Assembly: GCA_030149205.1 (NCBI GenBank)
Contig: JASBSB010000007.1
Location: 150,001-182,000, forward strand
DNA length: 32,000 bases
From: Candidatus Heimdallarchaeota archaeon
GTDB lineage: Archaea; Asgardarchaeota; Heimdallarchaeia; Heimdallarchaeales; Kariarchaeaceae
Direction: 5' to 3'
The notes under the pieces: model-generated
What the model was told of the DNA's origin: nothing
Database searches by the model: none
The model's input: the letters and a program-made list of their open reading frames with translations, nothing else
Shown here: one piece after another, positions 14,651 to 16,469 of the stretch
How positions within the stretch are numbered: position 1 is the first letter of the stretch
Layout: every line of letters starts with the position of its first letter
Position numbers and translations under genes: made by a program

Positions 14651-15796
14651 ATGAAGATTTCAAATAATTTGAGCAACGTGTCTGGGTCTGTTACTGCTCA
14701 GATTTTTGCAGAAACAAAGAGACTTCAACGTCTTGGTCAGAAGATTCTAAACTTATCAATCGGACAACCAAAATACCCTCCAATTAATCCAGTCTTAGAG
14801 AGTATTAGTTCAGCTGTGTTAGAAGGTAAAGTACAATATTCAGAAAGTAAGGGAATAATTGAACTAAGAGAGGCAATCAATAATTACTATGGACGAAATA
14901 ATGATCCAGAGAAAGAAATTATTGTTACTGCTGGTGGAAAAATTGGTATTTTTGCTTCCTTGTGGGCAGTTTGTAACCCAGGTGACAATGTCGTAATTTT
15001 AAATCCTTCATGGGTCAGTTACAAAGATATAGTAGGTAGTTTAGGATGCGAACCTAGGTTTATCCAAGTTGATGATGATTTTAGGTTTGATGAGGAAAGA
15101 TTAAGAAAGGTAATTGATGGTAAAACCAAGGCGATTGTTGTAAATTCCCCCTGTAACCCAACAGGTGCAATTATAAGTGAAAAAAATCTTTCAGATTTAT
15201 ACAGAATTTGTTTGGAATTTGATCTATTATTAATCAGTGATGAAATTTATAACGAGTATACCTACGATAGCAATAAATTCACATCGTTGACTTCAATTAA
15301 AAATTGGAAAGAAAATGGAGTTATAATTAATGGGTTTTCAAAGACCTTTTCAATGACAGGGCTTCGATTGGGCTATACTTTGACAAATGAAAAGATTTCT
15401 AAAGAAATCAATAAAGTTATGCAACTAACCGCAAGTTGTGCCCCACTACCTTCTCAAATTGGAGGGGTTAAGGCATTAGAAACAATAGATGAAACAAGAG
15501 CATACTTTAAACCAATAGTTAAGAAAAATCGAGAACTAATGATAAAATTAAGTAAAGAGATTGATGGATTAGTACTGTTCCCACCTCATGGTGCGATCTA
15601 TGGATGGTATAGAATTGAAGGAGAATCAGATTCTGCTGCTTGGGCTTCAAATCTGTTATCAAATGAAAGGGTTGCAGTAACGCCTGGCATTGGATTTGGT
15701 CCTGCAGGAGAAGGGTTCTTTAGAATTTGTTTTGCTGTAGATCAAGAAACTTTAGAAGATGGAATCACACAAATTGGAAAATTTGTCATGAGATAA
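14651..15796 (+). CDS. Class I/II PLP-dependent aminotransferase (aspartate aminotransferase-like)
   Basis: VNSPCNPTG, SDEIY and NGFSKTFSMTGLRLGY (PLP lysine). Confidence 0.93.
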   Translation: MKISNNLSNVSGSVTAQIFAETKRLQRLGQKILNLSIGQPKYPPINPVLESISSAVLEGKVQYSESKGIIELREAINNYYGRNNDPEKEIIVTAGGKIGIFASLWAVCNPGDNVVILNPSWVSYKDIVGSLGCEPRFIQVDDDFRFDEERLRKVIDGKTKAIVVNSPCNPTGAIISEKNLSDLYRICLEFDLLLISDEIYNEYTYDSNKFTSLTSIKNWKENGVIINGFSKTFSMTGLRLGYTLTNEKISKEINKVMQLTASCAPLPSQIGGVKALETIDETRAYFKPIVKKNRELMIKLSKEIDGLVLFPPHGAIYGWYRIEGESDSAAWASNLLSNERVAVTPGIGFGPAGEGFFRICFAVDQETLEDGITQIGKFVMR

Positions 15797-15807
15797 ATTT
15801 ACTAATA

Positions 15808-15830
15808 GACGCGCGACATTGTCGCGCGTC
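15808..15830. repeat. Perfect 23-bp palindrome GACGCGCGACA-T-TGTCGCGCGTC
   Basis: 11-bp inverted arms around a single T, read directly from the sequence. It contains two CGCGCG hexamers in AT-rich surroundings. Confidence 0.95.
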
Positions 15831-16023
15831 ATATCGCGAAAATGTTTGCATACTTTCATCATTAATAAAATGACATTTTTTGTTAAATTTAAGGATTTCC
15901 TTTATTTTTTCACTATTTTTTCCTAGAATATTTCGAGCCAAACCTATAAAAAAGGCGGGTTAACACTCTAGAAAAGGAATATCAAGAATTTGTGGTTAGA
16001 GAGCAAATAGCAATATTTTGAGT

Positions 16024-16038
16024 CAAAATGTTTATAGA
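16024..16038 (+). promoter_or_regulatory. Putative archaeal BRE/TATA promoter of the E2F/DP-like gene
   Basis: CAAAATG followed by TTTATAGA about 70 nt upstream of the ATG at 16104; SD-like AGGTGG at 16094-16099. Confidence 0.45.
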
Positions 16039-16103
16039 GTAGAAAGAGAGCTGTTACTTAGTGCTTATAACGATGAATATCGATTAAGTGCATAGGTGGG
16101 ATT

Positions 16104-16469
16104 ATGAAATTAAAAGAAATAGCTGATCAGGCGATTAATGTCATCAAAACAAGAGGAACCGAAGGGATTAACAATGCAGAGCTTGCAGAAATTGTTGGAA
16201 CGCCAAAAAGAAGAGTCTACGATGTTATTGCAATCTTACGAGCTGCAAATTTAATTACAACAGAAAGAGATGGAGCTGGAACTAAAATTTTTTGGCTTGA
16301 AAAAGATGAAACTTATAAAGAAGAGGTACAACCCCAGACCTCATTCTTCACTAGCAAATTAAAGGTATCAACTGATGGTCAAATCTACAATGTTGCAAAT
16401 CGTGGTTCTGAAGTTGTGATCGAGTTAGATGATGAAGCAAAACTATCTATTGAACCAATACTTGAATAA
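16104..16469 (+). CDS. E2F/DP-family winged-helix DNA-binding protein
   Basis: ELAEIVGTPKRRVYDVIAILRAANLITTE...KIFW matches the E2F/DP recognition helix (E2F4 KRRIYDITNVLEGIGLI...IQW; DP1 RRRVYDALNVLMAMNII...IKW). RRVYD is at 16209-16223. Confidence 0.8.
   Translation: MKLKEIADQAINVIKTRGTEGINNAELAEIVGTPKRRVYDVIAILRAANLITTERDGAGTKIFWLEKDETYKEEVQPQTSFFTSKLKVSTDGQIYNVANRGSEVVIELDDEAKLSIEPILE

Follow-up and report, generated by a model that had tools for sequence, protein, structure and literature searches.

An Asgard archaeal E2F/DP-family gene with conserved E2F-type motifs upstream and a predicted homodimeric product

The window analyzed here, 32,000 nucleotides of a Candidatus Heimdallarchaeota genome (G000:C8:150001-182000; genome G000 comprises 3.3 Mb in 12 contigs and is 93.5% complete), contains a small E2F/DP-family gene preceded by an intergenic spacer that carries several words resembling the binding sites of eukaryotic E2F factors. 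E2F/DP drives the G1/S program of all eukaryotes, and its Asgard homologs, the only known prokaryotic relatives, have so far been catalog entries without a known target. We find that the 121-amino-acid (aa) product of this gene is predicted to pair with itself and that it probably controls its own gene, because motifs of the eukaryotic E2F type are conserved upstream of it in related species.

The gene and its upstream spacer

The E2F-like gene occupies positions 16104 to 16469 of the forward strand. An original prediction, made from the letters of the window, had placed there a 121-aa protein with an RRxYD recognition helix, and the open reading frame (ORF) does encode one, with KRRVYD at residues 35 to 40 (nt 16206-16223). 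The spacer upstream (15797-16103, 307 bp) is the longest in the window by ORF-based gene calls, again as predicted, whereas its description as very AT-rich holds in a relative sense only: its 31.9% GC is the highest of any intergenic region in the window, the others having 20 to 30% GC. The coordinates given for its GC-rich words are all correct (CGCGCG twice, TCGCGAAAA at 15834-15842, TTTCGAGCCAAA at 15931-15942, and GGCGGG at 15954-15959), but the two CGCGCG occurrences (15810-15815 and 15823-15828) are arms of one 23-bp palindrome rather than separate words. The features of the locus are as follows.

14651-15796, + strand: class I/II aminotransferase (PF00155), a conserved upstream neighbor of the E2F-like gene
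15808-15830, unstranded: perfect 23-bp palindrome GACGCGCGACA-t-TGTCGCGCGTC, whose arms, TGTCGCGC(G), each match the canonical E2F site TTTCGCGC at 7/8 positions
15832-15842, unstranded: third CGCG core, TATCGCGAAAA, 11 bp from the right core of the palindrome and containing TCGCGAAAA (15834-15842)
15854-15863, unstranded: conserved word TTTCATCATT; TTCATC is kept in the same-genus alignment, and TTTCATCATT follows the palindrome at locus L122 (described below)
15900-15913, unstranded: T-rich block (T/A)ATATTTTTTCA, among the strictest four-way conserved blocks and possibly a second TATA-like element
15931-15942, + strand: site B, TTTCGAGCCAAA; sister species have TTTGGAGCCAAA or TTTGGAGCCAAC, which match the homodimer-type E2F palindrome TTTGGCGCCAAA at 11/12 or 10/12 positions
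15951-15962, + strand: site A, AAAGGCGGGTTA, with its GGCGGG core at 15954-15959; 20 bp from site B, start to start
16016-16028, unstranded: window-specific palindrome TTTTGAGTCAAAA, which abuts the TATA box and is not conserved in sister species
16026-16039, + strand: putative promoter, conserved AAATGTTTATAGAG, a strict four-way block; the TATA box, TTTATAG at 16031-16037, is assigned from the archaeal TATA consensus
16069-16085, + strand: short inverted repeat of the candidate 5' leader (in this genome, CGAT..ATCG), immediately preceding the ribosome-binding site
16094-16099, + strand: Shine-Dalgarno-like AGGTGG, 4 nt before the ATG, read from sequence
16104-16469, + strand: E2F/DP-family gene, 121 aa, PF02319 at 31.9 bits versus a cutoff of 25.7; sole copy in the genome
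16104-16301, + strand: winged-helix DNA-binding domain (residues 1-66), with K35-R36-R37-V38-Y39-D40 at nt 16206-16223 and W64 in the wing
16338-16466, + strand: C-terminal four-strand beta domain (residues ~79-121) with the block STxGxIYNVANRGxxVVIE; predicted homodimerization module

Family membership and fold

The PF02319 (E2F_TDP) profile aligns to residues 3 to 64 of the protein over profile positions 5 to 63 of 65, its 31.9 bits exceeding the gathering score of 25.7, and a profile search of the whole genome returns this one E2F_TDP match. The original prediction had named a better fit to a generic archaeal winged-helix family as one outcome that would speak against it; the next-best Pfam families (TrmB, at 17.9 bits versus 25.6, Rrf2, and HTH_24) all remain below their own cutoffs, and NCBIfam yields a sub-threshold ArsR match only (ArsR/SmtB, 17.1 versus a cutoff of 55). 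All 13 orthologs (close homologs with 42 to 100% identity) carry PF02319, and KRRxYD and the wing Trp (W64) are invariant in the 13 sequences, which also share the second conserved block STxGxIYNVANRGxxVVIE. A family-profile search of the whole PDB recovers only E2F8 (4yo2, E 9e-4), E2F4 and DP2 (1cf7_A and 1cf7_B), plus a chain designated 'H12' at E 6.3; the alignments cover the recognition helix, KRRVYD being aligned to the RRIYD/RRVYD of E2F8, E2F4, and DP2, and no TrmB-, MarR-, ArsR-, or Lrp-type chain appears in that search at E ≤ 10. Among 1.84 billion proteins, the profile has 63 matches, including proteins with strong E2F_TDP matches (82 to 190 bits); two of these have an additional match to E2F_CC-MB (one above the cutoff, one below it), and bona fide two-domain or CC-MB-bearing E2Fs are reached at E 4e-7 to 5e-4. 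By these profile comparisons, the 121-aa protein is computationally established as a member of the E2F/DP family.

The AlphaFold model has an overall predicted local distance difference test score (pLDDT) of 84 and consists of a winged helix (residues 1-64; helices 3-20, 24-31, and 35-47; strands 51-56 and 59-64), a disordered linker (68-77), and four strands (85-119). Block pLDDT is 83 to 90 over residues 1 to 60, the helices having 86 to 90 and the wing (residues 51-60) 83.

Asgard E2F/DP homologs have been published (Eme et al. 2023, Nature 618:992, Supplementary 4.1.5 and ESP table; PF02319, arCOG02749; review PMC7617429). Listed by Eme et al. under Heimdallarchaeaceae is a same-genus ortholog of the gene in the window, that of S012_26, which is 72% identical (WAKA01000204, 36819-37181; locus L006/L022) and entered as E2F/DP. 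The same authors noted that the base-contacting residues are conserved, suggested similar DNA motifs, and described the Asgard proteins as being without a dimerization domain (Eme et al. 2023). PF02319 occurs in 123 of the 301 genomes of the phylum and is patchy by family: it is present in 68/76, 17/19, and 4/4 genomes of some families and was not found in others (0/68, 0/29, and 0/21), which include the sister family of the window's genome, with complete one-contig genomes.

A second domain and a predicted homodimer

The strands of the C-terminal beta domain (residues 85-119) are modeled with block pLDDT of 89 to 95 and follow a short linker (residues 65-84) whose pLDDT falls below 50 over residues 68 to 77; modeled alone, the beta domain is poor (pLDDT 68). 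When two copies of the full chain are modeled as a protein-only complex, the interaction prediction score from aligned errors (ipSAE) is 0.43 (runs, 0.42 to 0.45) versus 0.00 for the best control; among proteins of solved structure, 20 of 30 same-chain pairs reach the mark of 0.42, as does 1 of 23 single chains. At least 81% of contacts are shared between the runs, with a partner pLDDT of 74 to 75. The main part of the predicted interface is an intermolecular sheet formed by residues 79 to 119, with additional contributions from helix 1 (residues 3-11) and the recognition helix (39-50) of both copies. The model lends support to self-pairing, short of showing it.

By hhalign, both domains align to a 176-aa homolog that has a charged, heptad-like helical insert of ~43 residues between them. 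Such a helix, ~40 to 45 residues long, separates the winged helix from the beta domain in the longer Asgard homologs P0019, P0024, P0031, and P0039, and it has weak matches to coiled-coil families (HALZ, Taxilin, and Filament). The resulting order of winged helix, coiled coil, and beta domain mirrors that of eukaryotic E2F/DP, and the protein of the window is the coil-less version. It has no Pfam match to PF16421 or the DP domain at E ≤ 10 and no pocket-protein (Rb) binding or transactivation region, the chain stopping at residue 121, directly after the beta domain.

E2F-type words in a CpG-poor genome

The canonical E2F site is TTTC[CG]CGC, and GGCGGG, the core common to all E2Fs, is represented by the seed NTTTGGCGGGAAAN in systematic evolution of ligands by exponential enrichment (SELEX) (PMC4686757). 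The SELEX seed is TTTGGCGGGAAA for E2F8 and WWWTGGCGGGAAA for E2F2-DP1 (PMC4686757). E2F homodimers bind GGCGCC, the canonical core for E2F/DP is GCGCGC, and the site in the 1CF7 crystal contains CGCGCG; the two recognition helices pack together in a single major groove, with minor-groove reading of the A/T flanks (PMC4686757).

Genome G000 is strongly CpG depleted (14.6 CG versus 26.1 GC per kb), and CGCG occurs 537 times in its 3.3 Mb, such that very few sites are possible for any CGCG-reading factor. Five of these 537 tetramers lie in one 35-bp stretch of this spacer. There are five copies of CGCGCG in the genome: two are the arms of the palindrome, and the other three fall in one clear tRNA-like sequence, in one probable tRNA, and next to an Lrp/AsnC gene. 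The four E2F cores (GGCGGG, GGCGCC, GCGCGC, and CGCGCG) have 140 matches in the genome, 30 of them intergenic, and 3 of these 30 are in this spacer; a stretch of ~4 kb without ORFs of at least 90 aa (G000:C8:254745-258749), probably an rRNA operon and containing three E2F-like words, was left out of the site counts by eye. The GC words upstream of the E2F-like gene are far from chance.

Outside tRNA genes, there is just one further long alternating GC word, GAGCGCGCGCTTTGG (G000:C4:178880-178887), situated 87 bp upstream of a 109-aa ORF without a Pfam match and beside an Lrp/AsnC regulator gene.

Conservation of the sites in relatives

The spacers of three same-genus genomes (G001, G002, and G003) have mostly diverged from that of the window, only 17% of the columns outside conserved blocks being identical in all four. 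The palindrome core GCGCGACAwTGTCGCGC is invariant across these three genomes; the other conserved islands are TATCGCGA (in two of the three same-genus loci), TTCATC, ATATTTTTTCA, the TATA region, and the leader element. At the proximal positions, G001 to G003 carry TTTGGAGCCAAA/C, followed 20 bp on by TTTGGCGG(G/T), which in two of them is an exact TTTGGCGGGAAA. G003 (3.6 Mb) has a single copy of this exact word, 147 bp upstream of its E2F-like gene, and G002 has two, one of them upstream of the gene.

Across the wider clade (59 to 77% protein identity), a CGCG cluster recurs at roughly -270 to -300, as do GC-core sites around -180 and around -150. In metagenomic orthologs at 59 to 67% identity, the CGCG clusters lie between -268 and -298, with GC cores close to -183 and -150, within spacers that are otherwise unalignable. 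Locus L121 has four CGCG words from -298 to -268, GCGCCA at -183, and CGCG at -149; L119 has CGCGC at -278, TCGCGAAAT at -269, GCGCCG at -183, and CGCGG at -150; and in both, TCGCGA-type words stand at the same distance as the third CGCG core of the window. At L122, the locus of a 59%-identical ortholog, CGCGACATTGTCGCGCG lies at -291 and is followed by TTTCATCATT, with AATTTGGCGGTATAAC at -150, AAATGGCGGAAG at -84, and AAATGGCGGGGAAT at -414. On the opposite strand at L123, the locus of a 52%-identical ortholog, TTTTGGCGGG lies at -40. In nine loci taken together, CGCG is 23 times as dense in the upstream 330 bp as in the flanks (33 per 2,850 bp versus 17 per 34,281 bp). For this clade, the expectation of the original prediction that orthologs would have CGCG motifs upstream is thereby borne out: CGCG and GGCG words stand at conserved distances, and two sister species have the exact TTTGGCGGGAAA. 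Here, none of the three computational checks that might have counted against the original prediction did so.

In other genera, TTTGGCGG(T/A) lies directly upstream of the TATA-like elements of paralogs/orthologs (L002, L017, and L018), of which L017 and L018 have no adjoining aminotransferase. A separate family has TTGGCGCC upstream (L077, L078, and L086) and GGCGGGTTGACA at L081, the counterpart in the window being GGCGGGTTAACA. Of 26 lineage groups, 5 have TTGGCGS, versus 0.69 expected (P ~8e-5, for a pattern partly chosen after looking). What leads the de novo 6-mer enrichment across the phylum is not the E2F cores but a Thor-type motif (CGAAAA, AAATCG, GTGTTA) together with the ribosome-binding site. 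In the largest gene-bearing family and in Thorarchaeota contigs, TTCGAAAAATCG followed by ATAACACAAA is what is conserved upstream, and no E2F cores were found there, though KRRxYD is kept.

A candidate self-regulatory circuit

The rarity of the sites, their conservation in relatives, and the predicted dimer come directly from computation, and together they suggest the following mechanism. The minimal Asgard (Heimdallarchaeaceae) E2F/DP protein would pair with itself, mainly through its C-terminal beta domain, and the two RRVYD recognition helices would occupy a single major groove next to each other, like those of E2F-DP. Such a dimer may read short CpG-centered cores (CGCG, GGCGGG, and GGCGCC) flanked by A/T tracts, its candidate target words including TTTGGCGGGAAA and GCGCGACAATGTCGCGC. 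The putative array upstream of its own gene would comprise two TGTCGCGC half-sites plus TCGCGA ~270 to 300 bp upstream and two sites, 20 bp apart, ~150 to 170 bp upstream of the start codon; a dimer reading CpG cores, given such an array before its own gene, would control its own transcription by feedback. Given how extremely rare the words are in a CpG-poor genome, the factor would act as a dedicated regulator with local, not global, reach. We consider it somewhat more probable than not that a homodimeric E2F/DP factor recognizes CpG-centered cores and, via this array, exerts feedback on its own promoter, forming a local circuit and not a cell-cycle regulon. We infer the binding itself, the sign of the regulation (repression or activation), and the position of the promoter.

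In its winged helix and RRxYD helix, the protein resembles E2F4-DP2 (1CF7) and E2F8 (4YO2), and the words upstream of its gene match GGCGGG, GGCGCC, and CGCGCG with A/T flanks. The predicted dimer also puts the recognition helices in contact, and those of the two crystals share one major groove (PMC4686757). Unlike the eukaryotic E2F-DP and E2F7/8 proteins, it is one small polypeptide that would act as a homodimer, rather than a heterodimer or a protein with tandem domains, and it is without the Pfam CC-MB/DP domain, coiled coil, pocket-binding region, or transactivation region of eukaryotic E2F/DP. Eukaryotic E2F genes (e.g., through the E2F1 promoter) are autoregulated via tandem E2F sites in their own promoters. 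The window is similar in having several E2F-type sites before the factor's own gene, including inverted, closely spaced pairs; it differs from eukaryotic E2F promoters in that the putative promoter is of the archaeal TATA/B recognition element type, with the candidate sites 75 to 210 bp upstream of the TATA box. Archaeal autoregulated factors of the TrmB, MarR, ArsR, and Lrp types offer a second likeness, that of a small, predicted-dimeric winged helix with palindromic sites near its own gene, although the protein of the window stays below the TrmB and ArsR/SmtB profile cutoffs, as given above. Compared with the Asgard E2F/DP proteins as published, what sets it apart are the conserved C-terminal beta domain, the predicted homodimer, and the cognate-looking sites upstream. 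We found no paper on the candidate cognate sites or on the putative dimerization module; the family and the suggestion of similar motifs were already published (Eme et al. 2023).

The conserved E2F-type motifs bear on whether the DNA specificity of E2F predates eukaryotes, and the predicted self-pairing of the beta domain bears on the origin of the E2F-DP heterodimer. One possibility, which we put forward tentatively and with rather more doubt than conviction, is that the E2F recognition code and self-regulation were already present in an Asgard homodimer, whose beta domain (joined through a coiled coil in the longer forms) would be the forerunner of the coiled-coil/marked-box module of E2F-DP. 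For the ancestral factor, the evidence at present favors a narrow, self-contained circuit over a cell-cycle regulon.

Points against and alternative explanations

Several observations weigh against a self-regulatory E2F-type circuit. In structure searches, Foldseek and VIA-align put generic winged helices (ArsR, MarR, and Z-alpha) first, with Z-alpha at the top by Z, and E2F chains are absent from the 50 structure matches listed; such searches do not discriminate among winged helices. The proximal sites of the window are degenerate: AAAGGCGGGTTA is without both consensus A/T flanks, compared with TTTGGCGGGAAA of two sister species, and in site B an A replaces the C of the E2F palindrome. The 23-bp palindrome, the strongest element, lies ~210 bp upstream of the putative TATA box, which is far for an archaeal operator. 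Across the phylum, the pre-specified E2F cores are only modestly enriched (4 of 26 lineage groups versus 1.26 expected, P ~0.03), and Thor-type homologs with KRRxYD carry TTCGAAAAATCG repeats, then ATAACACAAA, upstream.

That the spacer has no regulatory meaning, its likeness to E2F sites reflecting chance and shared ancestry, is very improbable, even granting that the same-genus genomes are not independent observations and that several motifs were chosen after looking: the words are extremely rare in G000, CpG cores are conserved in position at 59 to 67% protein identity in spacers otherwise unalignable, and CpG-core words recur in paralogs and other families. Exceedingly improbable is a scheme in which the CGCGCG arms, being Z-DNA prone, are bound in left-handed form by a compact, Z-alpha-like winged helix. 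The structural likeness to Z-alpha is that shared by winged helices generally. No Z-alpha family appears in Pfam at E ≤ 10; the Asn-x3-Tyr pair of Z-alpha helix 3 is missing, residue 35, one turn before Y39, being Lys; the wing reads TKIFW, without prolines, where that of Z-alpha has Pro-Pro-x-Trp; and E2F-type domains are left out of Z-alpha for a misplaced Trp in PMC11293857. Moreover, the other conserved sites (GGCGGG and GGAGCC) are not alternating.

Homology to E2F/DP would be compatible with a global, cell-cycle-type regulator whose own promoter is one target of many, including replication and division genes, but we regard this as improbable. TTTSSCGS is not enriched between genes in G000 (16 of 136 matches versus a 12% intergenic fraction), and TTT-S6-AAA occurs three times. 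The original prediction had proposed to look for the motif genome-wide upstream of replication and cell division genes; a scan of G000 with TTTSSCGS, TTT-S6-AAA, and the four cores finds no E2F-type site there and no enrichment between genes. The neighbors of the intergenic core matches are instead genes of metabolism, defense, or regulation, encoding a DNA methylase, a MeaB-mutase fusion, TPR, MarR, cytidylyltransferase, P-type ATPase, Cas, GNAT, UbiA, and DUF2201 proteins, and the candidate sites elsewhere that were compared are not conserved in relatives. A more serious rival, still unlikely, holds that the CpG-core elements are real cis-elements for another factor or for the aminotransferase, their E2F likeness being coincidental; the palindrome could then be an upstream activating or operator site where the two genes are divergent, or a 3' hairpin where they are arranged as in the window. 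The aminotransferase is a conserved neighbor in at least seven loci. In G001 to G003, where it is divergent, the palindrome is 45 to 85 bp from its start codon, so a role for that gene, at odds with the proposed circuit, is possible; in the window, the palindrome begins 12 nt past its stop codon, with a predicted RNA hairpin of -19.3 kcal/mol (z = -3.05). Yet the palindrome remains on the side of the E2F-like gene, at ~-290, in both arrangements, and no T-run follows the hairpin. The arms of the palindrome are invariant rather than covarying, which fits recognition by a sequence-specific protein. Furthermore, TTTGGCGG sites precede E2F-like paralogs without an aminotransferase nearby, and the words match three independently published E2F core types.

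The two best sites elsewhere in G000 were considered as further targets and rejected, as was a target shared with G007: TTTCGCGGGAAA at C4:423635, flanking the DNA methylase and the MeaB-mutase fusion, is not orthologous to an identical word in G001; TTTGGCGCCAAA at C2:632547 flanks a TPR gene; and the shared target upstream of GNAT genes (TTTGGCGGG in G000, exact TTTGGCGGGAAA in G007) involves unrelated GNATs, orthologs of the G000 GNAT being without the site.

The neighboring aminotransferase

The gene order of the window is aminotransferase (+), E2F-like gene (+), and M17 peptidase (-). The aminotransferase is likewise on the + strand at L119, L121, and the P0011 locus, and L119 also shares the downstream M17 peptidase; this order is probably ancestral, because it is common to the locus of a 67%-identical ortholog. 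In the three same-genus genomes, the aminotransferase is inverted (comparison of the window with L020, L021, and L022), and the window's copy is 56% identical to the divergent neighbor in G003. One inversion breakpoint is at most 12 bp from the palindrome. In genomes without the E2F-like gene, no CGCG clusters lie next to the best aminotransferase matches, an absence that says little because matches of 31 to 37% identity are not clear orthologs.

Other elements of the spacer and of Thor-type loci

The inverted repeat in the leader reads CGATGA..TCATCG and TGATGA..TCATCA in relatives, forming 6 pairs, one of them changed on both sides, with a local fold of z = -2.9; either an RNA hairpin or another operator is possible. 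An Rfam search of the spacer returned a chance-level match only (E 0.55). There is also a direct repeat, AATATTTCGAGCCAAA (15927-15942) and AATATTTTGAGTCAAA (16012-16027), 85 bp apart, whose second copy is a palindrome (TTTTGAGTCAAAA) and which is missing in sister species.

Thor-type loci (L064-L092 and L024-L026) have a strongly conserved module of their own at about -60 to -150 from the start codon. It begins with one to three copies of TCGAAAAATCG, often as TTTTCGAAAA-like palindromes, and continues with ATAACACAAA, a box resembling TTAAAT, and the ribosome-binding site GGGGTG. Of 26 lineage groups, 6 have TCGAAAAATCG, versus 0 expected; this word, as one with a T-tract, CG, and an A-tract, may be the operator of the Thor-type subfamily, with a shortened core.

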